Part shown: piece after piece, positions 1,975 to 31,675 of the stretch | Numbering within the stretch: the first letter of the stretch is position 1 | How the letters are laid out: each line of letters begins with the position of its first letter | Assembly: GCA_049599895.1 (NCBI GenBank) | Contig: JBMYPC010000006.1 | Span: 1-43,966, forward strand | Direction: 5' to 3' | DNA from: Bacteriovoracaceae bacterium | Lineage (GTDB): Bacteria > Bdellovibrionota > Bacteriovoracia > Bacteriovoracales > Bacteriovoracaceae | DNA length: 43,966 bases | Made by a program: the position numbers and the translations under genes | The notes under the pieces: generated by a model | What the model saw: the letters and a program-made list of their open reading frames with translations, nothing else | Told to the model about the DNA's origin: nothing | The model's database searches: none

Positions 1975-2400
1975 ATGGCGAAAAAAGTTAGTGGATTTAT
2001 TAAGTTGCAGATTGCTGGTGGTAAAGCGAACCCATCTCCCCCAATTGGTCCAGCTCTTGGTCAAAAGGGTGTTAATATCATGGAGTTTTGTAAAGCTTTC
2101 AATGCCAAAACTCAAAAAGATGCAGGTGTTATGCTTCCAACGATCATTACTGTTTATTCAGACAGATCGTTTTCTTTCGTAACAAAGACACCTCCGGCGT
2201 CTTATCTATTAAAAACAAAATTAAAGCTTAAGTCAGGGGCTAATAAGCCTGGTCATGAAGTTGCTGGAACAGTTTCTCAGAACATTGTTGATGAGATTGT
2301 TGAGCAAAAGAAGCCAGACCTAACTGCTGCTGGTTTAGAAGCTGGACGAAGAACTATTGAAGGGTCAATCCGTTCAATGGGACTTAAATTAGACTATTAG
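1975..2400 (+). CDS. rplK: 50S ribosomal protein uL11
   Basis: [27 protein letters not shown]. Confidence 0.99.
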
Positions 2401-2451
2401 AAAACCAAAGGTTTTCTGCGTCGCAGACGGCTAGTAAGCCTCAGCGCGCGG
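2399..2451 (+). repeat. Three-hairpin intercistronic element, copy R1 (after rplK)
   Basis: AGAAAACC-AAA-GGTTTTCT G CGTC-GCA-GACG G CTAGTAAGCCTCAGCGCGCGG; aligns with 5 other copies in this window. Confidence 0.9.
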
Positions 2452-2501
2452 TGATAAAAAAACAAAACCTGGCATAAGGCCAGTAAACATTTAAAACAAC
2501 T

Positions 2502-2538
2502 GTGGGAGACTGGACTTCGTGAGCCAGTCGCTTGGACC
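2502..2538 (+). promoter_or_regulatory. uL1-binding autoregulatory mRNA site upstream of rplA
   Basis: GTGGGAG-[GACTGG/CCAGTC stem]-GCT..ACC pattern typical of L1 leaders, next to the rplA SD. Confidence 0.65.
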
Positions 2539-2547
2539 GGAGGAATC

Positions 2548-3252
2548 ATGAAAAAACAATCTAAGAAGTTCTTAGAAGCTCAGAAACAAGTCGATTCAGA
2601 CAAAACTTACAACCTAGATGAAGGTATTGCACTTACAAAGAAAGTTGCTTTTGCAAAATTCGATGAAACTGTTGATCTTGCTTTTAGACTAGGTGTTGAT
2701 CCAAGACATGCTGATCAAATGATTAGAGGGGCGATTGCTCTTCCTGCTGGTACAGGAAAAACTGTACGAGTTTGTGTCATCACTTCTGGAGACAAAATTA
2801 AAGCCGCTGAAGAAGCAGGGGCTGATTTTGTTGGTTCAGATGATCTTGTGACTAAGATCCAAGGTGGATGGCTTGATTTTGACAGAATGATCGCATCTCC
2901 AGAAATGATGGGGAAACTTGGTCGTATCGGTCGTATTCTAGGGCCTAGAGGACTTATGCCTAACCCAAAACTTGGAACTGTTACTCCTGACGTTGCTAAA
3001 GCTGTTCAAGAGCAAAAAGCAGGTAAGGTCGAGTACAGAACTGAGAAAAACGGGATCATTCACGTTCCAGTTGGAAAGAAATCATTTTCTGAAGACCAAC
3101 TTAAGCAAAACATTACAGCTATGATCGCTGCCATCATGAAGGCGAAGCCTGTTAGTGCAAAAGGGACGTACCTTAAGTCATTAACTGTAAGTACAACAAT
3201 GGGGCCAGGTATCAGTCTTGATACTCTTGAAGCTTCAGGAATTGGCGCGTAG
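2548..3252 (+). CDS. rplA: 50S ribosomal protein uL1
   Basis: [32 protein letters not shown]. Confidence 0.99.
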
Positions 3253-3269
3253 AAATTTTATCAATTTGA

Positions 3270-3450
3270 AGGGGTTGAAGAAAGCCGGTTGCTATATAAA
3301 AGACATAAGTTGCTTAAAAATAGGAGATCCTAGGCAAAAGTGAAAGAGCGCGGAGACATACGAATGTATGTCGCACAAGCGAGAGAACTTTTAACGACGG
3401 AGATTCATTTTTAAGAAAGTTATAGCTAGAAATCCTGCCGAAGCTCCCCT
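3270..3450 (+). promoter_or_regulatory. L10 leader RNA with enlarged internal palindromic insert
   Basis: 5' GGGGTTGAAGAAAGCCGG and 3' AATCCTGCCGAAGCTCCCC resemble L10-leader halves; located in the rplA-rplJ spacer. Confidence 0.7.
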
Positions 3451-3477
3451 CTTAATAACATAATTAGGAGGTAACCT

Positions 3478-4023
3478 ATGTTAAATCGTGAACAAAAAGC
3501 GAAGGTTATCGAAGGACTTAAAGCAGACATTGAAAACGCAAGAGGGATCTTCTTAACGAACCTTATTGGCGTTAAATCAAATGATTCTGTAGCGATCAGA
3601 AAAAGTGTTCGTGACGTTGACGGAAAAATGGTCATCACGAGGAATACTCTTTTTCAGAAAGCTTCAGAAGGAACTGCTGCTGAAGGTCTTTTGAAAGGTC
3701 TTAAGGGGCCACATGCCGTAGCATTCGCTTTTGAAGATGCAGCTGGTGTCGCTAAATGCTTAAAAGACGCTGGTGAAGACTTCGAACTCGTCGACCTTAA
3801 GGGTGGTATTCTTAACGGTGACGAACTAACTAAAGAGCAACTTGTTCAACTTGCGAACTTACCGTCTCGTGATCAAATGCTTGGAACTCTTCTTGCAACT
3901 TTCAATGCACCTATTAGTGCACTAGCAAGAGTACTTTTTGCAATTCAAGAGCAAAAAGAAAGTGGAGCGGAGCCTGCGCCAGCTGAAGCGGCTGCAGAAG
4001 AAGCACCTGCAAGTGAAGAATAG
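3478..4023 (+). CDS. rplJ: 50S ribosomal protein uL10
   Basis: MLNREQKAKVI, LANLPSRDQMLGTL; synteny. Confidence 0.98.
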   Translation: MLNREQKAKVIEGLKADIENARGIFLTNLIGVKSNDSVAIRKSVRDVDGKMVITRNTLFQKASEGTAAEGLLKGLKGPHAVAFAFEDAAGVAKCLKDAGEDFELVDLKGGILNGDELTKEQLVQLANLPSRDQMLGTLLATFNAPISALARVLFAIQEQKESGAEPAPAEAAAEEAPASEE

Positions 4024-4065
4024 AGAAAACAGTTTAAACAATTTATTTTTATTTAGGAGAATACA

Positions 4066-4440
4066 ATGAGTACACAAATTACAAATGATCAATTAATCGA
4101 CCACATCTCTGGTATGTCAGTTCTTGAAGTTGCTGAGCTTGTTAAGCAACTTGAAGAGAAGTTTGGTGTTTCTGCAGCACCTGTTGCTGTTGCTGGTGGA
4201 GCTGCTGGTGGAGCTGCTGCTGAAGAGAAAACTGAATTTGACGTTGTTCTTGCTGAAGCAGGTGCTAAGAAAATCAACGTTATTAAAGAAGTTAGAGCAA
4301 TCACAGGTCTTGGTCTTAAAGAGGCAAAAGAACTTGTTGAGTCAGCACCTAAGCCAGTTAAAGAAGGTGTTGAGAAAGCTGAAGCGGAAGAGCTTAAGAA
4401 GAAGCTTGAAGCTGCAGGGGCTAAAGCCGAAATTAAATAG
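4066..4440 (+). CDS. rplL: 50S ribosomal protein bL12
   Basis: [37 protein letters not shown]. Confidence 0.99.
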
Positions 4441-4494
4441 AAAAGTCTTCGCACTAAGACCCTGTGCGTATAAACGATTTTTCATAATGATCAC

Positions 4495-4546
4495 GGGCAC
4501 AAGATTTGATAACGCGGTGTCGCTAGCAAGTTTTGTGCCTAATTTT
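4495..4546 (+). promoter_or_regulatory. Long stem-loop in rplL-rpoB spacer (attenuator or processing stem)
   Basis: GGGCACAAGATTTG...CAAGTTTTGTGCCT then AATTTT; analogous position to known rplL-rpoB attenuators. Confidence 0.45.
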
Positions 4547-4699
4547 GTGAAAGGGCTTGACACTTAGTTGCCTTTTCATGTTTTTAGTAGGTTTACTAAT
4601 TTATTAACTAGTTAATATGACGAACTCTTATTTTGGCCAAAAAGAGCACAATCTATTCGCGTCCTTTACTGGTGCATCCTGCACTAAGGAGACCCTATA

Positions 4700-7600
4700 A
4701 TGACTGAGGTTTTTTCTCCCAACGAGTGGTATAGACGAAGTTTTGCTTCAAACCCTGAAGTTATCGATACTCCTTCTCTAATGAAGTTACAGATCGATTC
4801 TTATGAAGAGTTTCTGCAAAGAGACGTTCCACCTGCAAAAAGAAGAAATGTTGGATTACAAGCTGTCTTTAAGTCAGTTTTCCCGATTCACGACTTTAAT
4901 AAAACAGTCTCTTTAGAGTTTGTTAGCTACGCACTTGAAGAGCCGAAGTACTCTGAAAAAGAATGTCGTCAAAGAGGTCTTTCTTATGAAGCTCCTCTTA
5001 AAGTTGTTGTTCGTCTTGTTTTCTACGAAGTGAACGTCGACAAAGAAGGTGAAGAGCAAAGAACAGTTTCAGCTATTAAAGAGCAGGAAGTTTACCTTGG
5101 TAACATTCCTCTGATGGCCGCAACAGGTTCATTTATTTATAACGGAACAGAAAGAGTTATCGTTTCTCAGCTTCACAGATCTCCAGGGATCATTTTTGAG
5201 CACGATAGCGGTAAGAAGCACTCTTCAGGGAAGCTTCTTTACTCAGCAAGAATCATTCCTCATAGAGGTTCTTGGCTAGACTTTGAATTTGATCACAAAA
5301 ACGTTCTCTTTGCGAGAATTGATAGAAAGAGAAAACTTCACGCAACAGTCGTTCTTAAGGCGATGGGGTACTCAACAACAGATCTTCTTGATCTTTTCTA
5401 TCACCATGAAACATTAACATTAAATAAAGACGGATCAATCAAGCGTAAGCTTGAACTTGATCTTTTAAACGGAACACGTTCAACAAGAGACGTTCTTAGC
5501 CCGAAAGATGCAAAAGTCATCGTTAAAAAAGGTAAGAAGTTCTCAAGACTTTCAATCAAAAAGCTTAAAGAAGCTGGTGTTACTGAGCTTGAAGCTGAGC
5601 TTGAAGACATTGTTGGAAAAGTTGTCGCTGAAGATATCTTTGACGAAAACACTGGTGAGGTTCTTTGCCTTGCTAACGAAGCATTAAGTGAAAGTAAAAT
5701 TCAAGACCTTCTTGCTGCTGGTGTTACTGAAATCAAGGTTCTTTATATTGATATGATCAACTTTGGTGATCAAATCAGAAACACTCTTCTTCTTGATAAA
5801 ACTGATTCAAGAGAAGATGGTCTTGTTAAAGTCTTTGAAAGACTAAGACCTGGAGAGCCGCCAACAGTTGAAGCAGCGGAACTTCTTTTCAACAACCTTT
5901 TCTTTTCTGAAGACAAGTATGACCTTTCTGCCGTTGGTAGAATGAAGGTTAACTATAAGTTTGGAATGGATGTTCCTGTTGAGAACACTGTTCTAACGAA
6001 TGAAGACATTATTAAAACTGTTCAATACCTTGTTGATCTTAACAACGGTAAAGGTAAAGTTGATGATATCGACCACCTTGGTAACAGAAGAGTAAGAGCG
6101 GTTGGTGAACTTCTCGAGAACCAATTTAGAGTTGGTCTTGTGAGAATGGAAAGAGCTGTTAAAGAAAGAATGGCCATCCAAGAAATTGATACGATGATGC
6201 CTTATGACCTTGTTAACCAAAAGCCAGTTGCGGCAGCGGTTAAGGAGTTCTTTGGATCTTCTCAGCTTTCTCAATTTATGGACCAAACAAACCCACTTTC
6301 AGAAGTCACTCACAAAAGAAGACTTTCTGCTCTAGGACCAGGTGGTCTTACAAGAGAAAGAGCTGGTTTTGAGGTTCGTGACGTTCACTCAACTCACTAT
6401 GGAAGAATGTGTCCGGTTGAGACTCCTGAAGGACCAAACATTGGTCTTATTACATCTCTTGCGACTTATGCTCGAGTTTCTGAATATGGATTCATTGAAA
6501 CTCCTTATCAGGTTGTTAATGAAAGCAATGAAGTTGGTAAAGCACAGTACTTTTCTGCCTTTGAAGAAGAAGGAAAGGTTATTGCTCAGCTTGATAATAA
6601 CTTTATTAAAGACGGAAAGATTGTAGGTGAACAAGTTCCTGCTCGTGCTGCTGGTGACTATACATTAGTTGAAGCGAGTGATGTTGAGCTTATGGACGTT
6701 TCTCCAACTCAGATGATTTCAATTGCAACATCTCTTATTCCTTTCCTTGAGCATGATGATGCCAACCGTGCTCTTATGGGATCGAACATGATGAGACAGG
6801 CTGTGCCTGTTGTGAAAACTGATGCTCCTATTGTTGGAACCGGAGTTGAAGCTATCGTTGCCAGAGACTCTGGGGCGATTCTTTTTGCGAAAAATTCTGG
6901 TCGAGTGATCTTCGTTGATTCAAACAGAATCGTTATCCAAAGAGATAAGTTTGAAGAAGGTGAGTCTGGGGTTGATGTTTACAAACTGATTAAATACCAA
7001 AGAACAAACCAAAATACCTGTAATAACCAAAGAGCTCTTGTAAAAGAGGGTGATAAGGTTAAAAAAGGTGAGGTTATTGGTGATGGTCCAGGGACTCACA
7101 ATGGTGACCTTGCTCTTGGACAAAACGTTCTTGTGGCCTTCATGCCATGGGGTGGATTTAACTATGAGGATTCAATCCTTATTAACGAAAGTCTACTTCA
7201 TAGAGATATCTTTACTTCTGTTCACATTGAAAGCTTTGAAGTTGAAGCCAGAGATACAAAACTTGGTAAAGAAGAAATCACTCGCGATATTCCAAACGTT
7301 TCTGAAGAAGCTCTTAAAGATCTTGATGAGGCGGGGATTGTTCGTGTTGGTGCGATCATTAAGCCTGGAGACATCCTTGTTGGTAAAATTACTCCAAAAG
7401 GTGAAACTCAACTTTCTCCTGAAGAAAAACTTCTTAAGGCGATCTTTGGTGATAAAGCTGGAGACGTTAAAGATACATCACTTAGAGTTTCTTCATCTGT
7501 GAGAGGAACTGTTATTGATGCGAAAGTTTACACTCGTGAAGGAGTTGAGCTTGATTCAAGATCAAAAGAGATTATTGATCACGAAACAACTCTTATCAGA

Positions 7601-8833
7601 CGTGATGAAAGAATTGAGATTAAAGCGATTCAAACTTCAGCAATTATTAGAATTGCAGATATGCTTAAAGGCGCTCAAACAACTGATGCTCTTGTTTCAG
7701 AAGATGGGACAGAAGAGCTTCTTCCTAAAGGAACTGAGATTACTTCAGAGGTTCTAAGCGGGATTCCATTTGAGCTTATTGGTTACTTACCTCTTAAAGC
7801 AGAGCTTGAAGAGTCAATCTCTGAATACTTCGCTGATGTTCGAAACAGAGTTAATCGAGTTCGCACAAAAGCAAATGATGAGATTGCAAACCTTCATAGA
7901 GGTGATGAACTTCCTCCAGGTGTTATCAAAAAAGTTACTGTCTACGTTGCGATTAAAAGAAAGCTTCAGCCGGGTGATAAGATGGCCGGGCGTCACGGTA
8001 ACAAAGGTGTTATTTCAAATGTTCTTCCTCAGGAAGACATGCCATACCTTGCCAACGGTACTCCGGTTGAGATCGTTCTTAACCCATTAGGTGTTCCGTC
8101 TCGTATGAACATCGGTCAGCTTCTTGAGCTCCATCTTGGATGGGCCGGACGTGGACTTGGTGAAAAGTTCCAGGCTCTTCTTGAAGAGCAACGTGAAATG
8201 CACGAGCTTAAAGATTATATCGACAAGATCTATCAAGATGAGAAAGTAACAGCTTGGCTTAAGAAAGCTTCTGATAAGCAAGTAAGAGCGGTTGCTAAAA
8301 AACTTTCAACAGGTGTTCGTTTTGCAACAACTGTTTTTGATGGAGCGAAAGAGCAAAACATTAGAGAGATGCTTGGACTTGCTGAATTTGAAGAGCATGG
8401 AAAAACAACTCTTTTCAACGGTCTTACCGGAGACGCTTTTGCGGAAGAAGTTACTGTTGGTGTGATGTATATGCTGAAACTTCACCACCTTGTTGATGAG
8501 AAGATTCACGCTAGATCGACTGGTCCATACTCACTTGTGACTCAACAGCCACTTGGTGGTAAGGCACAGTTTGGTGGTCAGAGACTTGGGGAAATGGAAG
8601 TTTGGGCACTTGAAGCTTATGGTGCGGCTTACACACTCCAAGAGTTCTTAACTGTTAAATCTGATGACGTTATTGGACGTACAAGAATGTATGAATCAAT
8701 CGTTAAAGGTGAGCAAGTTCTTGAACCTGGTCTTCCAGAGTCATTTAACGTTCTTATCAGAGAGCTTCAGGCCCTTTGTCTTGACGTTAAACTTGAAGAG
8801 TCTAGTGAAGAAGAATCAGTAACAATTTTATAA
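4700..8833 (+). CDS. rpoB: RNA polymerase beta subunit
   Basis: [34 protein letters not shown]. Confidence 0.99.
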
Positions 8834-8884
8834 TATTTGAATGACATATTGGCTTTGAGTTATTCAAAGAAGGGATAAAACAAC

Positions 8885-13185: not shown

Positions 13186-13560
13186 ATGCCTACGATCAAT
13201 CAACTTATTCGCAAAGGTCGAGTTGATAAATTTGAAAAAACCAAGTCTCCAGCGCTTAAAGCGTGTCCTCAAAGACGTGGAGTTTGTACTCGTGTTTATA
13301 CCACGACACCAAAAAAGCCTAACTCGGCAATGAGAAAGGTTTGTCGTGTGAGATTAACAAGTGGATTTGAAGTTACATCATATATTGGTGGTGAAGGTCA
13401 CAACCTTCAAGAACACTCTATTGTTCTTATTAGAGGGGGAAGGGTAAAAGACCTTCCAGGTGTTCGTTACCATACTATCCGTGGTGCCCTTGATACTACT
13501 GGTGTTGAGAAAAGACGTCAGAGACGTTCTAAATATGGTGCTAAGAGACCTAAGAAATAA
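13186..13560 (+). CDS. rpsL: 30S ribosomal protein uS12
   Basis: [30 protein letters not shown]. Confidence 0.99.
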
Positions 13561-13610
13561 CCCGAGGGGTTATTTCGCGTCGCAGACGACTAGGAAGCGT
13601 TAGCGCTCGG
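13554..13610 (+). repeat. Three-hairpin intercistronic element, copy R2 (overlaps rpsL stop)
   Basis: GAAATAACCC-GAG-GGGTTATTTC G CGTC-GCA-GACG A CTAGGAAGCGTTAGCGCTCGG. Confidence 0.9.
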
Positions 13611-13676
13611 TCGCATAAGGTAAAACAAAAGTTAAAGCAGAATTCGAAATAAAGAAAAAGCTGGAGTTAAAAAGAT

Positions 13677-14147
13677 ATGAGCCGTAAACACAGAGCTACC
13701 CCAAGACAAGTCCTTCCAGATCCAATCTATCAGGACGTTGTTGTGACAAAATTTGTTAACGCCCTTATGAAAGGCGGAGAAAAAGCTGTTGCTGAAAGAA
13801 TCTTCTACGGAGCTTTAAAGCAACTTGAAGGCAAGACAGGTGAAGAGCCACTAAAGACATTTAAGAAAGCTCTTTCAAATGTAAAGCCAGCTGTTGAAGT
13901 TAAATCAAGAAGAATCGGTGGGGCGACTTACCAGATTCCAGTTGAAGTAAGACCAGCAAGACGTCAATCACTAGCGATTAGATGGCTACGTGACTACGCA
14001 AGATCAAGAAATGGAAAGACTATGATTGATAAGCTTTCTGATGAGCTTTTTGATGCTGCTAACAATCGCGGTGGAGCGGTTAAGAAAAGAGAAGACGTTT
14101 ATAAAATGGCAGAAGCTAACAAGGCATTTGCTCACCTTAAGTGGTGA
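13677..14147 (+). CDS. rpsG: 30S ribosomal protein uS7
   Basis: [26 protein letters not shown]. Confidence 0.99.
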
Positions 14148-14194
14148 TTTAGCGTTTTAGCTTTTACAAAAAAACAAAAAATCGTTTATAAAAG

Positions 14195-14220
14195 AAAGGG
14201 CTCTATTGGAGCCCTTTTTT
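14195..14220 (+). terminator. Intrinsic terminator between rpsG and fusA
   Basis: AAAGGGCTC-TATTG-GAGCCCTTT then TTT. Confidence 0.8.
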
Positions 14221-14256
14221 ATTTTAAAAAGAGTTCAAGTTTAGGAGTGCAGTCCC

Positions 14257-16335
14257 ATGGCCGACTTAAGTAAAATCCGAAATATCGGAATTATGGCCCA
14301 CATTGATGCTGGTAAAACCACAACCACTGAAAGAATCCTTTATTACACTGGAAAAAGTCATAAGATCGGAGAAGTTCATGATGGTGCAGCCACTATGGAC
14401 TGGATGGTTCAGGAGCAAGAAAGAGGAATCACGATTACTTCTGCCGCAACGACTTGTCCTTGGGATGGGCACGAGATCAATATTATCGATACTCCTGGCC
14501 ACGTTGATTTCACAATTGAAGTCGAAAGAGCGTTAAGAGTTCTTGATGGCGCTATTGGTGTTTTTGATGCGGTTTCTGGTGTTGAGCCTCAGTCGGAAAC
14601 AGTTTGGGGCCAGGCCGATAAATACAAGGTTCCAAGAGTTGCTTTCGTAAATAAAATGGATCGTGTTGGAGCTGATTTTTTCAATTGTATTGAAGAGATT
14701 GGTTCTAAGCTTGGAAAGCAGGCTACTGCGATTCAACTTCCTATTGGTGCCGAAGATGAGCATCAGGGGGTTGTCGATCTTGTTGAAATGAAAGCCTACG
14801 TTTTCGGTGACGAAGAGCTTGGTAAAAATGTTTCAGCTGAAGAGATTCCAGCTGACATGAAAGATGAAGCAGAAGAATATCGAGAAAAGCTTATTGAATC
14901 TCTTGCAGATTACGATGATGAGCTTGCAGAGAAATATCTTGGTGGTGAAGAGTTATCGGTAGATGAAATTAAAGCCGCCATTAGAAAGTCTGTTATTGAG
15001 CATGATTTCATTCCGGTTCTTTGTGGAAGTGCCTTTAAGAATAAAGGGGTCCAGCCTCTTTTAGATGCTGTTAATGCTTATCTTCCTTCACCTCTTGATC
15101 GAGGGGAAGTAAAGGGTGTTAACCCAAAAAAGACGGAAAAAGAAGAGGTGAGAAAGCCTGATCCTGAGGATGCCTTCTCTGGAATTATTTTTAAAATTGC
15201 GACGGATCCGTTTGTTGGAACATTAAGTTTTTTAAGAATCTATTCAGGGACTCTTAAAACTGGTCAGCAAGTGTTTAACCCTCATAAAAAGAAAAAAGAA
15301 CGTGTTCATAAAATTCTGAGAATGCACTCAAATAAACGAGAAGAAGTTGCCGAAGCAAAAGCGGGTGACATTGTTTCAATTACTGGGCCAAAAGATCTGG
15401 TAACTGGGGAAACCATCTGTATAGAGCACAGACCTGTTGTTTATGATCTTATGAATTTCCCTGAAACGGTGATTTCTGTTGCAATTGAACCTAAAACAAG
15501 TGCAGATGAAAAGAAAATGATGGAGAGTCTAAAGCAACTTAAGGTTGAAGACCCTTCATTTGGTTTTACTCATAATGCTGAAACCGGGCAGCTCCTGATT
15601 AATGGAATGGGTGAGCTTCACCTTGAAATTATTGCTGATCGACTTGAGCGTGAATTCAAAGTCGGTGTTCGAGTAGGTAAGCCACAAGTGAGTTACAGAG
15701 AAAGTATTCAAGATGTGGCGACAGTAGAAAAAGAATTTGTGAAAGAAGCAGGAGAAAAAGTTCAGTTTGGTAAGGTGACAATTAAAGTTGAGCCAGCTGA
15801 TTTTCAAGCTGGTGTTGATTTTGAAACGAAACTTACGAAAAGAGATCTGCCTGAAGATTATATTTCTGCAGTTAATGACAGTATTAACAACACTGCCCCA
15901 GGTGGTGCTTTAGCGGGATATCCTTTTATTAATATTAAGGCGACTCTAGAGTCTGCAGAATATCGAGAAGAAGAGTCTGCTGAAATTGCCTATACGATAG
16001 CTGCCTCGCAGGCATTTTCGGATGCTTGTCGAAAAGCAGGTCTTAGTCTTCTTGAGCCCGTTATGGAGATTGAGATTGTGACTCCGTCTGATTACACTGG
16101 GGATATTATTTCTGATATCAATATGAAAAAGGGAAAAATTCAGTCCATGGACTCTAAAGGGGCAAAAGAAGTGATTAAAGCTGATGTGCCTCTTCGAAAT
16201 ATGTTCGGATATAGTACAGATTTAAGATCTAAATCCCAAGGTCGAGCAAGTTTCACCATGACCTTTAAAAATTACAAAACCCTTTCTCACGACGAAGCGA
16301 AAAGTATTCTCGAGGCTAAAGGAATCTATATTTAA
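14257..16335 (+). CDS. fusA: Elongation factor G family GTPase with degenerate domain IV (possibly recycling-type EF-G2)
   Basis: [27 protein letters not shown] and NKMD intact; str-operon position; domain IV tip motifs not conserved. Confidence 0.95.
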
Positions 16336-16444: not shown

Positions 16445-17020
16445 ATGAAAAAAACTCTTTTAGCACTTTCTATGTTTGCAGGTTTTTCTTTAGCCGTTCA
16501 AGCTCTGTCAACAGTTGATCTTACAGGCCTTATTTCAAATAACTCATCAGAGCGGACTTTGAGTGTGAAAAGAACTTATCTTAAGTCTTTTATGAAGGAA
16601 ATTAATAAGGATTATAAAGCCGGTAAGGATATTTATTTCTATGATGATGAGGGGTATAAAAGATCTTTTGGTTTAAATGACGACTCAGTTTCTCAGTATG
16701 TTGATGATAGTGGTGAGGGGGCTGATGTGTTTTATGACTGCGCCGTTCCCGAAGAAGAGATTAGCTATTACATGGCCTATCAGGAAGGTGGAAGTCTTTG
16801 GTGGAATAAAATCGTTAACAAAGTGACAAACAAAGTTGTGGCCTATGTCGCGTATGTCACAACAAAGTTTGATGTTGATTTTGTGATGGACGATGACTCG
16901 ACTATCAATGTGAAAAACTGCTTAGTTGATTATGGTGCGATTGTCACAGACCCAAATGGCCAGCCGGCGAAAGTTATTGGGACTGATTATATCAATCTGG
17001 AAAACCACAAAGAATACTAA
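16445..17020 (+). CDS. Hypothetical secreted acidic protein
   Basis: Signal peptide MKKTLLALSMFAGFSLAVQA; SD AGGGGG; own terminator; no family recognised. Confidence 0.85.
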   Translation: MKKTLLALSMFAGFSLAVQALSTVDLTGLISNNSSERTLSVKRTYLKSFMKEINKDYKAGKDIYFYDDEGYKRSFGLNDDSVSQYVDDSGEGADVFYDCAVPEEEISYYMAYQEGGSLWWNKIVNKVTNKVVAYVAYVTTKFDVDFVMDDDSTINVKNCLVDYGAIVTDPNGQPAKVIGTDYINLENHKEY

Positions 17021-17050: not shown

Positions 17051-17082
17051 AAGCCCCGTTATTTACGGGGTTTTTTGTTTTT
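17051..17082 (+). terminator. Intrinsic terminator
   Basis: AAGCCCCGT-TATTT-ACGGGGTT followed by a long T tract. Confidence 0.85.
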
Positions 17083-20284: not shown

Positions 20285-20563
20285 ATGGCGAGATCGTTGA
20301 AAAAAGGCCCTTACGTAGACTTCCAGTTAATGAAGAAAGTACTTGAGGCCCAAGAAGATGAAAAGAAAGGAAGCAAAGTGATCAAGACTTGGTCTAGAAG
20401 ATCAACAATTGTTCCTGAGTTTATTGGACTTACATTTGCGGTACATAACGGGAAAAAATTTATTCCTGTTTATGTTACAGACAACATGATCGGACATAAG
20501 CTTGGAGAATTTTCTCCAACGAGAACTTATTATGGTCACGGTGCAGATAAGAAGAAGAAATAG
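20285..20563 (+). CDS. rpsS: 30S ribosomal protein uS19
   Basis: [20 protein letters not shown]. Confidence 0.99.
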
Positions 20564-20618
20564 CTAAAACCGTAAGGTTTTAGGGCGTCGCAGACGGTTA
20601 GTAAGCGTCAGCGCACGG
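20564..20618 (+). repeat. Three-hairpin intercistronic element, copy R3 (after rpsS)
   Basis: CTAAAACC-GTAA-GGTTTTAG GG CGTC-GCA-GACG G TTAGTAAGCGTCAGCGCACGG. Confidence 0.9.
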
Positions 20619-20646
20619 AGAAGAAATAAAAAGTAGGAGCCCTGAG

Positions 20647-20982: not shown

Positions 20983-21025
20983 TAGAATTTAGCGTTAGTT
21001 AGGTTGTAACGAGGAAAGTAGTTTT

Positions 21026-22176: not shown

Positions 22177-22202
22177 ATAAATCGCAAAATATAGGTGATG
22201 TG

Positions 22203-22403: not shown

Positions 22404-22434
22404 GTGAAAGACCAGTTGAGTCGAGGATAAGAAG

Positions 22435-22689: not shown

Positions 22690-22704
22690 TATTAGGGGAC
22701 TAGC

Positions 22705-23073: not shown

Positions 23074-23097
23074 TTGAGCAAGGCTCAGGAGTAGAAA

Positions 23098-23403: not shown

Positions 23404-23414
23404 GGATAGGATCA

Positions 23415-23957: not shown

Positions 23958-23981
23958 GAAAAGCGATAAGCGGAGAATAAG

Positions 23982-24287: not shown

Positions 24288-24310
24288 GAGTAGTTGAGGA
24301 GAATTTAGTT

Positions 24311-24694: not shown

Positions 24695-24729
24695 CGATTT
24701 TTTAATATATAAGGTTAATGAGGTAAAAG

Positions 24730-25266: not shown

Positions 25267-25392
25267 TCCTTAAGGGTTGCTTAGTTTTTGCCATTGGCAA
25301 TATTTTCAGATATACCATCTGCCTAGATATAGCGATTTTTAAGTTTCTTAACATGTTGAAATGTTAAATGTTGCTTAGGGTGGGAGTTAAAA

Positions 25393-25773
25393 ATGATAAG
25401 AAAAAGCTTAAAAAAGTTTAAACAAGAATCTTCAAGAAAGCGTTACAGAAGAAAACTCACGATTAGAAACAAGGTTGAGGGAACTGCTGAGCGTCCAAGA
25501 ATTGTTATTCACAGATCTAACAAAAACATTGCTGTTCAAGTTATTGATGATGCTGCAGGAAAAACTCTTGCAAGTGCTCAAACATTTGGAAAGGCTGCTG
25601 TTGGTGGAGCGAAGGCTAATAAAGAAGGTGCCGCTCTTGTTGGAAAAGCTCTTGCTGAGAAAATGACAAGTGCTGGTATTAAGGCTGCGGTTTATGACAG
25701 AGCTGGATACAAGTATCACGGTGTTGTTAAGCAGATTGCAGAGTCTATTAGAGAAAATGGAGTACAAATTTAA
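25393..25773 (+). CDS. rplR: 50S ribosomal protein uL18
   Basis: GTAERPRI, DRAGYKYHGVV. Confidence 0.98.
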   Translation: MIRKSLKKFKQESSRKRYRRKLTIRNKVEGTAERPRIVIHRSNKNIAVQVIDDAAGKTLASAQTFGKAAVGGAKANKEGAALVGKALAEKMTSAGIKAAVYDRAGYKYHGVVKQIAESIRENGVQI

Positions 25774-25799
25774 GCTTTGCTTAGATTTTGGAGTTGAAT

Positions 25800-26408
25800 A
25801 TGAGTGAAGAAACTAAAACTGAAGAAACAAAAGTAGAAGCAGCAGCAGAAGCAAAAGCTGATGGTGGTGATAAGAAGCAGAAGAGACAAAAAAGAGCTCC
25901 TCAAAAAAGAAAAACTTCAACAATTGATGCTGAACTCGAAGAAAGAGTTGTTGCTGTTAACCGTGTTGCTAAGGTTGTTAAGGGTGGTAGAAGATTCAGC
26001 TTTTCTGCTCTTATGATTGTTGGTGATAAAAACGGACGTGTTGGATACGGACTTGGTAAAGCTAAGGAAGTTCCAGAAGCAATTAGAAAAGCGACTCAAA
26101 AAGCACAGAAGTCAATGATCTCTGTTCCTCTTGATGGAGATACAATTCCTCACCAAGCTCTTGGAGAGTTTGATGCAGGTAAAATCCTTTTTAAGCCAGC
26201 TTCTCGTGGTACCGGGGTTAAGGCTGCTGGTGCATGTCGATCGATCTTAGAGCTTGCGGGTGTAAAAGACGTTCTTACAAAGTCACAAAGAGGGAATAAC
26301 CCACATAATATTGTTAAGGCGACATTTGCAGCTCTTAAGTCTTTAAGATCAGCAGAGCAAGTTGCTAAGGCCAGAGGAATTGACCCTAAGTCAGTTCGAA
26401 TTAAGTAA
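25800..26408 (+). CDS. rpsE: 30S ribosomal protein uS5 with N-terminal extension
   Basis: [18 protein letters not shown]; start moved to ATG 25800 behind SD GGAG (25790-93). Confidence 0.98.
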
Positions 26409-26429
26409 TTAGGTAGTGAGGATAAAGAT

Positions 26430-26612
26430 ATGTCAGCTGGAAAAATCACTGTAAAACTAAAGAAAAGTGTTATCACTTGTACTGAAAAGCAAAAAGCTTG
26501 TGTAAGAGGGCTTGGTCTTAGAAAGATTAACTCAAGCCGAACTCTTGAGAATACACCTGCTGTTAGAGGGATGATCAAAAAAGTTATCCACCTACTAGAA
26601 ATTTCTGAATAA
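26430..26612 (+). CDS. rpmD: 50S ribosomal protein uL30
   Basis: [19 protein letters not shown]. Confidence 0.98.
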
Positions 26613-26626
26613 TTGAGGATAGAGAT

Positions 26627-27076
26627 ATGTTGACGCTAAATAATTTAAAAAGCCCTAAGGGTGCGCATCGCAACACTAAAAGAATTGGTCGTGGTCAAGG
26701 TTCTGGTTACGGAACTCAGGCGGCAAAAGGTCACAAAGGTCAAAAGGCGAGAGCTGGTGGCGGTGTCCGAACTGGTTTTGAAGGTGGGAACATGCCTCTT
26801 TATATGAGACTACCGAAAAAAGGTTTCTCTAACGCACCTTTTAAGACTGAATATGCGATTGTTTCTCTTGATACGATCAAGAATCACTTTGATTCTGGTG
26901 AAGTGACGAGAGAACTTCTTGTTGAGAAGGGAATTCTTAAAGGAAAGGATAGAAGACTTCCAATTAAGATCCTTGCTGGACAGAACTTCGATAAGTCTTT
27001 ATCTTTTATATCTATTGAAAAATTCTCAAAATCAGCAAGGGAAGCGATTGAGAAGGCCGGGGGAAAACTTCAGTAA
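26627..27076 (+). CDS. rplO: 50S ribosomal protein uL15
   Basis: RIGRGQGSG, GFEGGNMPLYMRLPK. Confidence 0.99.
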   Translation: MLTLNNLKSPKGAHRNTKRIGRGQGSGYGTQAAKGHKGQKARAGGGVRTGFEGGNMPLYMRLPKKGFSNAPFKTEYAIVSLDTIKNHFDSGEVTRELLVEKGILKGKDRRLPIKILAGQNFDKSLSFISIEKFSKSAREAIEKAGGKLQ

Positions 27077-27147
27077 TTTCTCTGTTCTTTAGAGAGATTT
27101 CTCCTCTTTCGAAGTTGGTTTTAAGCCAAATTTAAGGATATTTGCAT

Positions 27148-28458
27148 ATGGCGATTTCGCAAACTAAGTACGATGACCTCAAGAAAAAGATTTTCTTTAC
27201 GTTTTTACTACTCATTGTTTACAGGTTTGCAGCACAGGTCCCTGTACCTGGAGTTGATGCGAGTGCGCTAAGTAGTTTTTTCGGTGATGACACACGAGAT
27301 GCTTTTGATCTTCTTAATACATTCTCTGGTGGTGCCCTTAAAAGATTCTCAATCCTAGCTCTTGGGATTATGCCTTATATTACGACTTCAATTATTTTCA
27401 GTCTTTTGGGGGAAGTTATTCCTCAGATTCAAGAACTTCAAGAGGATAGTGAGGGTCATAAGAAAATTCAAAAATGGACTCGCTACGCAACAGTTCTTCT
27501 TTGTGCTGTTCAAGGTTACGGTCTTGCGGCTTACTTTGAGTCAGTCAATGCTCCTGGTGGATCACCGGTTATCCCTGAGCCCGGACTGCTTTTTAAGTTA
27601 ACAGCAACAATCACTCTTGTTGGTGGGACTATGTTCCTTCTTTGGCTTGGTGAGAGGATCACTGAGTGGGGACTTGAAAATGGTGTTTCATTAATTATCT
27701 TTACAGGTATTGCGGTAGAGCTTCCAACTGAAGTCTTCCAAAATATTACTCTTTACAAAAACGGTGAATTACATGGATTTGATCTCTTTAAGATCTTTGG
27801 TGTGATTGCTATTGCCTTTTATGTGGTCTCATTTATTGAAAGGTCCTTTAGAGGGGTGCCTGTTCAATATGCGAAACGGGTGGTTAATGGACAAATGCAA
27901 GGTGGAACTCAAACTCTGCCTGTAAGAGTTGATACTGGTGGGGTTATGCCTCCTATTCTAGCTTCTTCTCTTCTTGCTGCACCAGCAACTCTTGGAAGAT
28001 TTATTCCTCAAGATAGTGCGATTGCTCCTTACTTGGATTCAATCCTTCAATCACTTTACCCTGGGAACATGCTCTTTAACCTATTCTTTGGGTTACTGAT
28101 TGTTTATATGACTTATTTTTATGCACCAATTCAGTTTAAGACGAAGAAAATTGCTGAAATGTTGCAAAAAAATAATGCTTTCGTTCCAGGTGTAAGGCCA
28201 GGTCCGAAAACAAAAGAGTATCTTGATTATGTTCTTAATCGAATGACTTTTGTAAGTTGTGTTTACCTTATCATTATCTGTGTGATTCCAACGATTATCA
28301 CAGGTCAGCAAACACGGTTTGGTGGAACGGCACTTCTTATCCTTGTTTCAGTTAGTATTAGAGTAATGATGAATATTCAGTCATTTCTATTTGCTGATCG
28401 TTATGAAACAGCTCAAAAGTCTCGTGGGAAATATAAGGGCGCTAACAGACGCTTTTAA
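27148..28458 (+). CDS. secY: Preprotein translocase subunit SecY
   Basis: SILALGIMPYIT, WLGERITE, FVPGVRPG; ATG 27148 behind SD AAGGA. Confidence 0.98.
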   Translation: MAISQTKYDDLKKKIFFTFLLLIVYRFAAQVPVPGVDASALSSFFGDDTRDAFDLLNTFSGGALKRFSILALGIMPYITTSIIFSLLGEVIPQIQELQEDSEGHKKIQKWTRYATVLLCAVQGYGLAAYFESVNAPGGSPVIPEPGLLFKLTATITLVGGTMFLLWLGERITEWGLENGVSLIIFTGIAVELPTEVFQNITLYKNGELHGFDLFKIFGVIAIAFYVVSFIERSFRGVPVQYAKRVVNGQMQGGTQTLPVRVDTGGVMPPILASSLLAAPATLGRFIPQDSAIAPYLDSILQSLYPGNMLFNLFFGLLIVYMTYFYAPIQFKTKKIAEMLQKNNAFVPGVRPGPKTKEYLDYVLNRMTFVSCVYLIIICVIPTIITGQQTRFGGTALLILVSVSIRVMMNIQSFLFADRYETAQKSRGKYKGANRRF

Positions 28459-28473
28459 AAGGTTGATAAACTT

Positions 28474-29112
28474 ATGGCAAAGCCAAATCTTATTCTTTTA
28501 GGTGCACCAGGTTCAGGAAAGGGAACTCAGGCAGCTAAAATTTCAAGTCGACTTGGTTATAGCCACGTATCAACAGGAGATCTTTTACGTTCTGAGATTG
28601 CTAAAGGATCAGAGCTTGGAAAAAAGGTTGAATCAATTTTAAAAGAAGGCGCGCTTGTTGATGATCACACTGTTCTTGATCTTTTAAAGGCGAACTGTGA
28701 CTTAGCTGCGAATGCTTATATTTTTGATGGGTTTCCAAGAAACCTCGATCAGGCTCAATTACTAGATGAGCACATCATTAAAGACTCTGCCAGCATGGCA
28801 ATCTTTTTTGAAATTGATGATGAAGTTATCGTTGAGAGAATTGTAAATAGAAGAATCGCCAAGGGAAGTGGCGAAATATATAACCTTAAGTCTCGACCTC
28901 CTAAGGTTGAGGGAAAGTGTGACGTTTCTGGTGAGGATCTAATTCATAGACCTGATGACCAAGAAGACGTTGTGCGTAAGCGACTTGAGGTTTTTAGGGC
29001 TGAAATTGCTCCTATGCTTGAGTATTACGAGGGTAAGGGACGTTTGCAGCGAGTCAATGCTCTCACTGAAGCAGAGCAATTGTTCTCAGAAATAGAAAAG
29101 TTAATAGGTTAA
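28474..29112 (+). CDS. adk: Adenylate kinase
   Basis: GAPGSGKGTQA, STGDLLR, DGFPR. Confidence 0.99.
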   Translation: MAKPNLILLGAPGSGKGTQAAKISSRLGYSHVSTGDLLRSEIAKGSELGKKVESILKEGALVDDHTVLDLLKANCDLAANAYIFDGFPRNLDQAQLLDEHIIKDSASMAIFFEIDDEVIVERIVNRRIAKGSGEIYNLKSRPPKVEGKCDVSGEDLIHRPDDQEDVVRKRLEVFRAEIAPMLEYYEGKGRLQRVNALTEAEQLFSEIEKLIG

Positions 29113-29133
29113 TTAGGTAGGTCCTTTGGAGAC

Positions 29134-29162
29134 TTGCATAATTAGAGAGTTTTAGTTATACA
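29134..29162 (+). promoter_or_regulatory. Candidate internal sigma70 promoter for infA-alpha segment
   Basis: TTGCAT-17 nt-TATACA. Confidence 0.3.
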
Positions 29163-29188
29163 TCGATGGATTAAAATGGGTAATTTGA

Positions 29189-29440
29189 ATGTCTGGTGCT
29201 GAGTCAATTGAAGTTGAAGGAGAGGTAACTGAGTTACTTCCAAATACGAAGTTCAAAGTAAAGCTGCCAAATGGCCATTCAATTATTGCTCACATTAGCG
29301 GTAAGATGCGAATGCACTTTATTAAGATCTTACCTGGTGACAAAGTTTTAGTTGAGATCAGTAAGTATGATCTTTCTAAAGGAAGAATAACTTATAGAAG
29401 TAAGGGTGGGGCGAAACCACCACCAAGAACTGATAAGTAA
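29189..29440 (+). CDS. infA: Translation initiation factor IF-1 with C-terminal tail
   Basis: [31 protein letters not shown]. Confidence 0.99.
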
Positions 29441-29491
29441 AACCGCGAGGTTTTACCCCCCCGGAGGGAACCAGCAAGCGTCAGCGCGCGG
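29437..29491 (+). repeat. Three-hairpin intercistronic element, copy R4 (overlaps infA stop)
   Basis: GTAAAACC-GCGA-GGTTTTAC, CCC-GGA-GGG, CCAGCAAGCGTCAGCGCGCGG. Confidence 0.9.
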
Positions 29492-29549
29492 GCATAGTAA
29501 TAGAAGAGCTTAAAACGTTAGCGGTAATAGCGATAGAAAGGTAGAAGTC

Positions 29550-29666
29550 ATGAAAGTTAGAGCGTCGGTTAAGAAGATTTGTAAAGATTGTAAAGTTGTT
29601 AAGAGAAAAGGTGTTCTTCGAATTGTTTGTAAAACAAATCCAAGACACAAGCAACGTCAAGGTTAA
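29550..29666 (+). CDS. rpmJ: 50S ribosomal protein bL36 (Zn-ribbon type; below the ORF-track size cutoff)
   Basis: Manual translation [38 protein letters not shown]. Confidence 0.99.
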
Positions 29667-29691
29667 GAAGTAGTAGTTAGGAGAAGTTGTT

Positions 29692-30075
29692 ATGGCACGT
29701 ATTCTAGGTGTAGATATTCCAAGAAATAAAGTAGTGAGAATTGCTTTAAGATCACTTTATGGCGTTGGACCAAAAGTTGCGATGGATGTTTTAGCGAAAG
29801 CGAACATTGATCCAGAAAGTAACTCAAATGATTTAACAGAAGAGCAATCAAACGAAATTCGTTTAATTCTCGAAGAAAGTTACACTGTAGAAGGTGATCT
29901 TCGTAGAGAGATTGGTCTTAATATTAAAAGACTTAAAGACCTTGGTTGTTACCGTGGTTTAAGACATAGAAAAGGTTTACCTGTTCGCGGGCAAAGAACA
30001 AGCACCAATGCAAGAACTCGTAAAGGTCCAGCTGTTGCAATCGCTGGTAAGAAATCTATTAAATCGATGAAGTAG
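29692..30075 (+). CDS. rpsM: 30S ribosomal protein uS13
   Basis: [25 protein letters not shown]. Confidence 0.99.
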
Positions 30076-30086
30076 GTAGGAAAGTT

Positions 30087-30473
30087 ATGGCAAAAAAAGT
30101 TGCAGCGAAGAAAAAAGTTAAAAAGAATATTCCTCATGGGATCTGTCATGTACAGGCTTCATTTAACAATACAATTGTTACATTCACTGATCCTCAAGGT
30201 AAGGCGATTTCTTGGGCCAGTGCTGGTCAGTTAGGATTCAGAGGATCTAAGAAATCAACTCCATTTGCGGCACAGTCGGCTTCAGTTGAAGCAGCCAAAA
30301 AGGCTATGGAGCACGGACTAAGTTCAGTTGACGTAAAAGTTACTGGACCAGGTGCTGGACGTGAAAACGCAATTAGAGCTCTTCTCACAGCTGGTTTAAA
30401 AATCACGTCAGTTGCTGATCGGTCACCAATTCCTCATAATGGATGTCGTGCACCTAAGAGAAGAAGAGTCTAA
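30087..30473 (+). CDS. rpsK: 30S ribosomal protein uS11
   Basis: [23 protein letters not shown]. Confidence 0.99.
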
Positions 30474-30523
30474 AACCGCGAGGTTTTAGGCCCCGCAGGG
30501 AGCTAGCAAGCGTCAGCGCGCGG
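30470..30523 (+). repeat. Three-hairpin intercistronic element, copy R5 (overlaps rpsK stop)
   Basis: CTAAAACC-GCGA-GGTTTTAG, CCC-GCA-GGG, CTAGCAAGCGTCAGCGCGCGG. Confidence 0.9.
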
Positions 30524-30579
30524 TTGCAAACTAAAGAATACTATAAAAGTAGAAGTAAATATTTAAGGAGAATCCCATA

Positions 30580-31614
30580 ATGGATAACACTTTCGTCGTT
30601 AAAAATTGGAGCAGCCTCATTAGACCAGTGGCTTTAGAGCTTGATTCAGACAGCTTAAAAAGCAACTACGGTAAATTTGTCGCGAAACCTCTTGAAAGAG
30701 GATACGGACAAACTTTAGGTAACTCTTTAAGAAGAGTTCTTCTTTCTTCTCTTCAAGGAGCAGGTATTGTTGCTCTTAGAATCGAAGGTGTTGAGCATGA
30801 GTTTGGGACAATCAACAACGTTAAAGAAGAAGTTGCTGAAATTATCCTTAACTTAAAAGAAGTTCAGTTAAAAATTAAAGGTAAAGAAGAAGTTGTTCTT
30901 ACTCTTGAGAAGTCAGGAGAGGGACCTGTAACTGCTGCTAATATTACTGAGAATCCAAGTGTTGAAGTTTTAAACCCAGATCACGTTATCTGTAATGTTT
31001 CTTCTGGTGGAACAATTAAAATGGAGCTTAAGGTTTGCCGTGGTAAAGGTTATGTTACTGCTGTTGATAACAAAGAGCTTTATGATCTTCCTGTTGGGTG
31101 GATCTACCTTGATACACTTTTTTCACCTGTTAGCCGTGTTAACTACACAGTGACTAACTCAAGGGTTGGAAAGAGAACCGACTTTGATAAGTTAACTCTT
31201 GAAATCTGGACAAACGCTTCTGTTGATCCAACAGATGCAGTTGCTTATTCAGCTAAAATCCTTAGAGATCAGCTTGCTGTATTTCTTAACTTTGAAGACG
31301 AGGAAGAGATTGGAAGAGTTGAGACTGCGAAGCCTCAGAAAACTCAAAATGTTACAAACAGCGCCCTTCTTAAGCCTGTTTCTGAGCTTGAGCTTTCTGT
31401 TCGCTCAGCTAACTGCCTTCAAAACGCAAATATCAAGTATATTTACGAGCTTGTTTCTAAGACAGAAGGTGAAATGCTGAGAACTAAGAACTTTGGACGT
31501 AAGTCTTTAAACGAAATCAAAGAAATTTTAAACAATATGGGACTCGGTCTTGGGATGAAAGTCGACAATATCATGAAAGATATACAAGATCAGGCTCAAG
31601 GTGAAGCAGAGTAG
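30580..31614 (+). CDS. rpoA: RNA polymerase alpha subunit
   Basis: [44 protein letters not shown]. Confidence 0.99.
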
Positions 31615-31618
31615 GATA

Positions 31619-31675
31619 CGGAAACCGGATGAGGTTTCCGGCGTCGCAGACGACTAGCATCCGTTGAGGATGCGG
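31619..31675 (+). repeat. Three-hairpin intercistronic element, copy R6 (after rpoA; most divergent)
   Basis: CGGAAACC-GGATGA-GGTTTCCG G CGTC-GCA-GACG A CTA-GCATCC-GTTGA-GGATGC-GG. Confidence 0.85.

Follow-up and report, generated by a model that had tools for sequence, protein, structure and literature searches.

Much is known about small structured repeats in enterobacteria, pseudomonads, neisseriae, and pneumococci, and our literature search found no paper on such repeats in Bdellovibrio-like predators. REPs are single 20–40 bp palindromes with an unpaired GTAG or CGTC end tag, and Correia elements carry 26-bp inverted repeats at their termini together with a TA duplication. In the sections of Di Nocera et al. 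(2013; PMC3733652) drawn on here, the REP and BIME sequences of Proteobacteria are short, GC-rich, dispersed extragenic hairpins that show compensatory stem variants and G-T pairs, mostly sit within a few nucleotides of the upstream ORF's 3' end, often have termini that provide that ORF's stop codon, are species-restricted, and combine into mosaics, all of which recur in the element described below. The BOX elements of Streptococcus pneumoniae and MITE-like mosaics are likewise built from terminal and variable internal modules, and BOX is described as intergenic, co-transcribed with its neighbors, predicted to fold as RNA, and lacking a clear autonomous parent; the same review names Correia elements and REP2 of Neisseria as small dispersed repeats with outward promoters, REP2 combining stem-loops with its promoter (parts of Delihas 2011; PMC3184786). 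PeSL cassettes of T4-type phages, as far as described in the part of Arbiol et al. (2010; PMC2839356) used here, are repeated units between genes that join stem-loops to a strong sigma-70-like promoter, and they are associated with mosaic rearrangement.

The window, a 43,966-nt stretch at the start of contig JBMYPC010000006.1 of a Bacteriovoracaceae bacterium, carries six copies of an element with three hairpins (P1, P2, and P3) in its ribosomal gene supercluster (Table 1). A preliminary description made from the letters alone had proposed these six copies, and a covariance model recovers all of them, on the + strand and folding as claimed, at 60–72 bits (E 6e-17 to 1e-13). Consistent with its observation of no copy at 32–44 kb, the six are the only matches on the contig, and its account of R6 as having exchanged the apex of P3 likewise holds. 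Stop codons had been described as overlapped by the copies or close to their starts, and in all six the stop lies within P1 or at most 5 nt away. The degenerate tail behind R6, the counterpart of the tail of a longer form of the element found elsewhere in the genome, gave no match to the tail profile at E<=0.01, and it was not listed by the promoter scan because its second hexamer ends in G.

Table 1. Copies of the three-hairpin element in the window, with flanking genes identified by Pfam; scores in bits are from the covariance model.
Feature	Flanking genes	Position	Strand	Score or basis	Details
R1	rplK (L11)/rplA (L1)	2397..2455	+	65.3 bits; MFE -23.8, z -3.4	TAG stop of rplK within P1 5' arm; diverged remnant of tail hairpin downstream
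R2	rpsL (S12)/rpsG (S7)	13552..13614	+	62.1 bits	10-bp P1 takes in last two codons and TAA stop of rpsL
R3	rpsS (S19)/rplV (L22)	20561..20622	+	71.8 bits; z -3.9	P1 20564-20583 (GTAA loop), P2 20586-20596, P3 20598-20618; last nucleotide of upstream stop codon 20563
R4	infA (IF-1)/rpmJ (L36)	29434..29495	+	65.7 bits	TAA stop of infA within P1 5' arm; C/G-rich variant of P2
R5	rpsK (S11)/rpoA	30468..30527	+	70.4 bits	TAA stop of rpsK within P1 5' arm
R6	rpoA/rplQ (L17)	31617..31679	+	60.2 bits; z -3.7	another perfect stem in place of P3 apex
R6 degenerate tail		31680..31715	+	direct reading of sequence	promoter-like hexamers TTGAAA 31687-31692 and TATAAG 31710-31715, 17-nt spacer, predicted to point at rplQ

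These six copies are part of a family that numbers at least 66 in the 3.27-Mb metagenome-assembled genome, 60 of them outside the ribosomal cluster. The covariance model gave 82 matches at E<=1, or 66 copies after merging, a lower bound because eight of them lie within 300 nt of a contig end, and nhmmer gave 45 matches at E<1e-3, 39 of these outside the window. This extent lies beyond what could be read from the letters available to the preliminary description. Most copies adjoin genes unrelated to the ribosome, other sites including atpG/atpD, groES/groEL, acpP/fabF, a position behind rpsI, and one between rpoN and hpf, and the closest kin of each ribosomal copy is a different non-ribosomal copy. 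We regard the element as an undescribed mosaic repeat of the REP/BIME/BOX type, and we think it likely, at a probability of about 0.7, that it spread as a small non-autonomous element of this kind and that its ribosomal copies are lineage-specific insertions and not an ancestral control signal.

The three-hairpin structure is strongly supported. P1 is an A/U-rich 8-bp hairpin, P2 a hairpin of 3–4 bp, and P3 a bulged hairpin with a GNNA-type loop; pairing is preserved in 93.8% of alignment cells, vs 34–47% when the partners are slid, both sides have changed in compensation at 12 of the 18 pairs, and the covariation score was reached by none of 500 shuffles. The earlier assignments of P1 (AAACC-loop-GGTTT core) and P2 (CGTC-GCA-GACG or CCC-GNA-GGG) are borne out. 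For P3 the proposed hairpin stands and covariation refines its detailed architecture: the lower stem consists of C-G, Y-G, a bulged A, G-C, and a covarying N-N' pair, and the upper part has a 2x2 internal loop (AA opposite GC) followed by a two-pair GC/GC stem and the tetraloop. The YYAG ahead of P3 is partly paired. The sense strand is the folded strand, as G-U/U-G cells outnumber A-C/C-A cells 45 to 10. The covariation could equally be explained by selection for RNA function.

P1 and P3 are common to the short, tailed, and insert-bearing forms of the family. Roughly 44 copies are canonical and roughly 22 are mosaics that carry other hairpin modules between P1/P2 and P3. One insert type leaves P2 in place, the other substitutes for it, and some copies of the family are partial. 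These interchangeable modules in varying combinations are as expected of BIME and BOX elements. The tail profile finds a 3' tail in 22 of the 66 copies, leaving 44 with no promoter tail; in the resulting long form, the module is followed by about 50 nt with outward TTGAAA-N16-18-TATAAT-like hexamers that read as a predicted sigma-70 promoter (TTGAAA-N18-TATAAT, 11/12). Placement behind genes is also REP-like: of the 33 copies that follow a gene on the same strand, 18 lie at most 3 nt from its stop and 14 have that stop inside the model.

Each known system nevertheless differs from the family described here. Unlike a REP, the element comprises three hairpins and has no conserved unpaired tag, CGTC occurring within P2 in only about half of the copies (the pair that makes it is U-A in 22 and C-G in 22 of 48 alignment rows). 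Whereas BIMEs contain inverted dimers, copies here are single and sense-biased, and they are common in divergent, promoter-containing regions (16 divergent vs 5 convergent). BOX sequences are unrelated, with no Rfam match, and where BOX has tandem boxB units internally, the present family has other hairpin repeats. In contrast to Correia elements, the two ends of the long form share just a TATA-like motif, a duplication could not be demonstrated, and the outward promoter is a predicted one. PeSL cassettes, in the part of their description used here, are phage elements whose stem-loops work as terminators (PMC2839356), while the present family is carried on a bacterial chromosome, has no T-run behind its hairpins, and is mostly tail-less.

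Comparison with related genomes points to lineage restriction. The element has no significant match in 19 related loci covering rpoA +/-10 kb, where the corresponding spacers, as far as measurable, are 0–57 nt long, with one of 100 nt, vs 83–128 nt here; three relatives have an extra ~650–700 nt between rpsK and rpoA. A strict P2–P3 pattern has 23 matches here and none in 40 other genomes, and the covariance model gives weak matches only, in 5 of 36 same-family genomes and in none of 24 others, so that the 60 related genomes yielded no convincing find; two diverged long-form copies were seen in one genome, G044. In a metagenomic relative, X3, whose flanks are 93–99% identical, 31619-31730 is replaced by 21 other letters, as read from one metagenomic contig at depth 7, and R4 is present. 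The preliminary description had left two options, a module setting ribosomal stoichiometry or a REP-like mobile palindrome. The second is favored by at least 66 dispersed copies, their absence from relatives' spacers, the X3 difference, and the mosaic forms, and the first is opposed by the location of most copies beside unrelated genes and by sites that are not conserved.

The same data bear on whether the element is an autoregulatory leader or a common binding site for ribosomal proteins. In the window, each of the six copies stands ahead of a ribosomal or translation gene, but nearly all of the copies outside the cluster lie beside non-ribosomal genes, relatives' equivalent spacers lack the element, and Rfam returned no match at the gathering score and, at E<=5, nothing that overlaps a copy, in line with the earlier remark that it resembled no known r-protein leader. 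This reading is already contradicted by the genomic distribution of the family, and we consider it extremely unlikely.

Mobility is inferred from distribution alone, because a transposase, a terminal inverted repeat, and a target duplication have none of them been established. The genome encodes one Y1/RAYT-like protein (PF01797, C53:3546-3872), whose gene has 36-nt flanking inverted repeats that form a different hairpin, resembling the inserted modules and not P1–P3; in this the family departs from REP/REPIN systems, as no RAYT gene here is bordered by the element's own hairpin. At the X3 site, a candidate empty site, the 21 replaced letters blur any reading of a target duplication.

Orientation and placement are more structured than insertion alone would suggest. 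Between same-direction genes, 27 copies are sense and 8 antisense (p=0.002); tail-less copies account for 21 sense vs 3 antisense (p=0.0003), or 15 vs 3 with the window left out, and tail-bearing copies show no bias (6 vs 5). The ribosomal cluster holds six copies vs 0.85 expected (p=0.0003). The strong preference of tail-less copies for the sense orientation, the constant register of the stop in P1, and the ribosomal enrichment are together more than a randomly inserting, purely selfish element would predict. Because the tail-less form is so strongly sense-biased and over-represented in the ribosomal cluster, an acquired RNA-level role may exist, though any such role is one that we infer.

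One version of such a role is domestication: in highly expressed operons, the transcribed tail-less form would have become a cis-acting element that blocks exonucleases, is processed, or binds a protein at the stop codon and so tunes the relative output of neighboring cistrons. The sense bias and ribosomal enrichment fit this proposal, as do the excess of G-U over A-C cells, the copies in the atp, groESL, and acpP-fabF operons, behind rpsI, and at rpoN/hpf, and the codon-adaptation percentiles, whose median is 0.64 for genes beside sense-tandem copies (KS p=0.02) and 0.24 for genes downstream of antisense copies. Ribosome stalling and lower translation have also been reported for REPs within 15 nt of a stop codon (Liang 2015, as cited in a portion of PMC12306157). 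Against it, the sites are conserved in none of the 19 related loci, the R6 stretch is replaced in the near relative X3, many sense copies lie beside ordinary genes, the codon-adaptation shift is weak (p=0.15–0.17 for upstream genes alone), and the separated pairs L11/L1 and S12/S7 are required in equal amounts. We regard domestication as possible but rather unlikely.

Alternatively, the sense bias may have been set at insertion and not by RNA-level selection, if the element moved as single-stranded DNA into a strand bared by replication or heavy transcription. RAYT and IS200/IS605 enzymes use a single-stranded DNA intermediate, which a defined folded strand would fit, and the encoded RAYT-like protein, the enrichment of copies in heavily transcribed operons, and a positive local GC skew on the element strand in 41 of 66 copies (p=0.064) are in keeping with this route. 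Tail-bearing copies, however, show no orientation bias, and the RAYT-like gene is bordered by a different hairpin. Orientation follows gene direction no less closely than it follows skew (27 vs 25 of 35), because seven sense-tandem copies lie on the negative-skew strand. Strand-specific insertion appears improbable as the source of the bias.

Stable GC-rich hairpins directly behind genes might also suggest a terminator or attenuator that works without a U-tract, and long-form hairpins do stand just upstream of the promoter-like tail, reminiscent of the terminator–promoter pairing of PeSL cassettes in the part of PMC2839356 drawn on here. The window scan found no hairpin with a T-run on the sense strand at any of the six copies, as the preliminary description had also noted, though the genome uses canonical hairpin-plus-T-run terminators elsewhere in the window (17051-17073 and 32123-32148). 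Moreover, a stop inside the S10, spc, or alpha operons or at rpsL/rpsG would sever promoterless essential genes, making termination very doubtful as a function.

Returning to a mobile REP/BIME/BOX-like repeat, we suggest that copies would be retained chiefly where they directly follow or overlap the upstream gene's stop codon; there the element would bring its own in-frame TGA or TAA, and the site would spare the ribosome-binding site of the next gene. Inside operons, copies would be co-transcribed, and antisense ones were likely purged. Where there is any effect, it would probably be REP-like, with a stable hairpin block at the stop codon opposing 3'-to-5' decay of the upstream segment and perhaps also slowing terminating ribosomes; the long-form tail is predicted to give the downstream gene an added promoter.

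The family unites features that are usually separate: three covarying hairpins, an optional, predicted outward promoter, nested hairpin repeats, fixed-register stop supply, a sense-biased short form, and over-representation in the ribosomal supercluster. Even if the bias is not functional, such spacers should not be taken for ribosomal leaders in annotation, and the copies break short-read assemblies, 8 of 66 lying at contig ends. If the bias does reflect function, the family would offer a small, naturally occurring example of how a mobile element can become an operon signal at the RNA level. More speculatively, and with odds that we place well below even, the tail-less form may be a transposable operon punctuation, a mobile module of three RNA hairpins that inserts at sense-strand stop codons or persists only there, that has colonized the most heavily expressed operons of one predatory lineage (ribosomal, ATP synthase, groESL, and acpP-fabF), and that determines how stable mRNA segments are or what becomes of terminating ribosomes. 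Were this so, a repeat would have rewired post-transcriptional control within the lifetime of a genus.

The six three-hairpin elements of the ribosomal cluster, R1 to R6, were recovered with the sequences, positions, folds and gene neighbours that the preliminary description had given them (see the table). When aligned, the six copies share 72% mean column identity, and each folds into the first hairpin, P1, followed by GC-rich stems, with folding energies that range from -21.5 to -28.3 kcal/mol and, relative to shuffled sequences, z-scores between -1.7 and -3.9. In R1, R2, R4 and R5 the upstream gene has its stop codon within the 5' arm of P1, and in R3 and R6 that stop codon ends 0-4 nt ahead of P1. 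The reported lack of a U-tract also held, in that a search for sense-strand hairpins leading into a T-run called none at the six copies, and canonical terminators were called at two other sites in the window. Likewise, the element is new to Rfam: the window matched no family at gathering score, none of its 11 weak matches at E<=5 overlaps a copy, and eight loci with other copies gave three weak matches, none on an element.

Features of the window and of the rest of the genome (G000, with its contigs as C numbers); neighbours of R1 to R6 by Pfam
Feature	Location	Strand	Detail
Contig start	window 1-15		begins within short hairpin, then T-run
R1	window 2397-2455	+	L11/L1
R2	window 13552-13614	+	S12/S7
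Hairpin then T-run	window 14195-14217	+	9-bp GC-rich hairpin, in rpsG-fusA spacer 14148-14256
191-aa ORF	window 16445-17020		between fusA and rpsJ; good coding score; no Pfam family
Canonical terminator	window 17051-17073		downstream of 191-aa ORF; 337-nt spacer before rpsJ
R3	window 20561-20622	+	S19/L22
R4	window 29434-29495	+	IF-1/L36
R5	window 30468-30527	+	S11/RpoA
R6	window 31617-31679	+	RpoA/L17
Canonical terminator	window 32123-32148		cluster end
Two tandem copies	C17:28085-28298	both sense	96 nt apart, between rpoN and ribosome hibernation factor gene
Second repeat family	C15:19240-19320, C86:7880-7990, C105:1810-1950, C51:15290-15420		P3 apex motif reused
Y1/RAYT-like transposase gene	C53:3513-4088 (= locus L123:1468-2043)		191 aa; PF01797, 30 bits
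Inverted-repeat arms of that gene	L123:1364-1399, 2029-2064		36 nt, 92% complementary

The idea of an element that punctuates the ribosomal cluster stands as to its presence there and fails as to confinement, since the family is spread genome-wide. The assembly comprises 3.27 Mb in 266 contigs at 37.7% G+C, the window being one whole contig. A profile of the six copies gave 45 matches at E<1e-3, 39 of which lie outside the window contig, along with many partial matches, and a covariance model derived from 28 copies (the R1 model) gave 82 matches at E<=1, of which only the six lie on the window contig, in agreement with the reported absence from 32-44 kb. Merging of split matches left 66 copies for analysis, a lower bound because 8 of the 66 are 300 nt or less from the end of a contig. 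The short form consists of the three hairpins P1-P2-P3, to which a tail of ~50 nt is added in 22 copies; in ~20 copies P1/P2 and P3 are separated by a further hairpin-rich module of one of two kinds, and orphan halves of the element also occur in the genome. The element thus has the defining features of a mosaic repeat, and it is one without a match in Rfam or among plasmids and phages, neither collection of which matched one long-form copy used as query. It lacks the features that define tagged REPs, and inspection of the aligned long forms established neither of those that define MITEs, terminal inverted repeats and a target duplication.

The tail reads TTGAAA, 16-18 nt, then TATAAT or TATATT, and scored 11 of 12 in a promoter scan of one copy; it is predicted to be an outward promoter. 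R6 bears a degenerate version facing rplQ, and remnants of the tail can be seen by eye in R1 and R5. Dispersed repeats that carry promoters are known in Neisseria (PMC3184786) and T4-type phages (PMC2839356). For Bdellovibrio-like bacteria, full-text literature searches turned up no paper on repeats like the present element.

The structure itself is conserved among copies. In 48 model-aligned copies, 93.8% of cells are standard pairs, against 34-47% with the 3' partners slid, 12 of 18 pairs have both partners changed and none of 500 shuffles reached the observed covariation score, although these figures overstate independence because the alignment was fitted to the model and represents paralogous copies. 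Covariation is seen in P1, in the inner pairs of P2 and in two parts of P3, its N-N' pair and its apical GC/GC stem. As G-U/U-G cells number 45 against 10 A-C/C-A cells, the folded strand is the one sense to the ribosomal genes, as RNA or single-stranded DNA; for REPs, G-T pairs have been taken as a sign of RNA function (PMC3733652). A second repeat family in the genome reuses the P3 apex motif within differently framed flanking modules, and isolated P3-like motifs are also found in other genera of the family (genomes G003, G009 and G015), so the P3 apical hairpin may be an older shared building block.

By its RpoA the organism belongs to the Bacteriovoracaceae, with a best identity of 83% and named matches that include Halobacteriovorax and Bacteriovorax. 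DNA of the window is found in marine metagenome runs, and no RNA run is listed as containing it. A strict P2-P3 pattern matched 23 times in this genome and in none of 40 others, and the covariance model, under stricter filters, gave matches, all of them weak, in 5 of 36 same-family genomes and nothing in 24 others. One of these 5, G044, holds just two diverged long-form copies, of which one is tandem-sense and the other lies in a convergent region. A scan of metagenomes with the P3 pattern was set aside, as its 33 stretches approximate chance by our own estimate; all score 12-32 bits with the R1 model, a score owed largely to the pattern, and most intact copies of the short form in this genome reach 57-85 bits.

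Orthologous sites bear on the age of the ribosomal copies. No significant match was found within 10 kb on either side of rpoA in any of 19 related loci; where measurable, the four spacers examined there are 0-57 nt long, with one of 100 nt, and the corresponding window spacers are 83, 109, 106 and 128 nt. The rpsK-rpoA spacer holds ~650-700 extra nt in 3 of the 19, which is probably rpsD, a gene absent between rpsK and rpoA in the window (30474-30579). In X3, a metagenomic run with contigs of a close relative, contig pieces match the window at 93-99% identity; one contig (depth 7) joins 31618 to 31731 via 21 other letters in place of R6 and its tail, and another has R4, differing at 4 of 52 nt, and after it 91 letters in place of 36 nt. 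Moreover, the closest matches of each ribosomal copy include a different non-ribosomal copy. Together, the absence in relatives, the X3 contigs and the differing closest copies point to separate recent insertions rather than an ancestral operon feature. The two readings offered earlier, a cis-acting RNA module and a REP-like mobile palindrome, fare differently: the latter is favored by dispersal, mosaicism and absence at orthologous sites, and the former, as a module dedicated to the ribosomal operons, is not.

Elsewhere in the window, the hairpin and T-run between the genes for S7 and EF-G look terminator- or attenuator-like from their sequence. This spacer gave weak sub-threshold Rfam matches only (L20_leader, 27 bits) and no repeat elsewhere in the genome, and in one X3 contig 14146-14276 is replaced by 32 other letters.

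Only one Y1/RAYT-like transposase gene is present in the genome. Each of its flanking arms contains an A-rich/T-rich hairpin resembling the modules inserted between P1/P2 and P3 of mosaic copies, and the protein may be the enzyme of that other repeat family; as the mobilizing enzyme of the present element it was rejected, the single Y1_Tnp gene being flanked by another hairpin. The window itself begins within a hairpin and T-run of the same type, which suggests that the assembly broke at a repeat.

Placement was scored against 3,099 genes called with a codon-usage score. Between same-direction genes, 27 of the 66 copies are sense and 8 antisense (p=0.002), the others being divergent (16), convergent (5) or beside a contig end (10). 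Tail-less copies are 21 sense against 3 antisense (p=0.0003), or 15 against 3 without the window (p=0.008), and tail-bearing copies 6 against 5, a difference between the two forms that is not significant (Fisher p=0.077). The upstream gene is on the same strand for 33 copies, of which 18 begin no more than 3 nt from its stop and 14 have the stop inside the model, 8 of these 14 in one shared register, the TGA/TAA of the P1 arm. To see whether the element adds C-terminal residues, L11, GroES and AcpP were compared with solved homologues; they match these in length, so that no more than one or two codons at the end of the upstream gene would be replaced. REPs offer a precedent for this placement, as they lie no more than 20 bp from the end of the upstream ORF and often supply its stop codon (PMC3733652), and ribosome stalling has been reported for REPs that are 15 nt or less from a stop codon (Liang 2015, as quoted in PMC12306157).

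By Pfam assignment of 106 flanking proteins, sense copies lie between atpG/atpD, groES/groEL, acpP/fabF, and rpoN and hpf, as well as behind rpsI and clpP, and many ordinary genes also adjoin copies. The ribosomal cluster holds six copies against 0.85 expected (p=0.0003). Genes beside sense-tandem copies show a weak shift in codon adaptation, with a median percentile of 0.64 (KS p=0.02, 40 non-independent flanks), and upstream genes alone show no significant one; genes flanking antisense copies have low scores.

The element is a dispersed, lineage-specific mosaic repeat. Its multiplicity, lineage restriction, absence at orthologous sites and mosaicism are established; mobility, with an enzyme and a target, we infer, the element likely moving, or having moved, as a non-autonomous element. 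Random insertion does not account for the tail-less sense bias or the excess in the ribosomal cluster. Insertion may be strand-specific, and local GC skew on the element strand is positive in 41 copies against 25 (p=0.064, on short contigs), but this skew is no better a predictor of orientation than gene direction. Alternatively, antisense copies may have been purged from transcribed operons, or the repeat may have been exapted as an RNA element.
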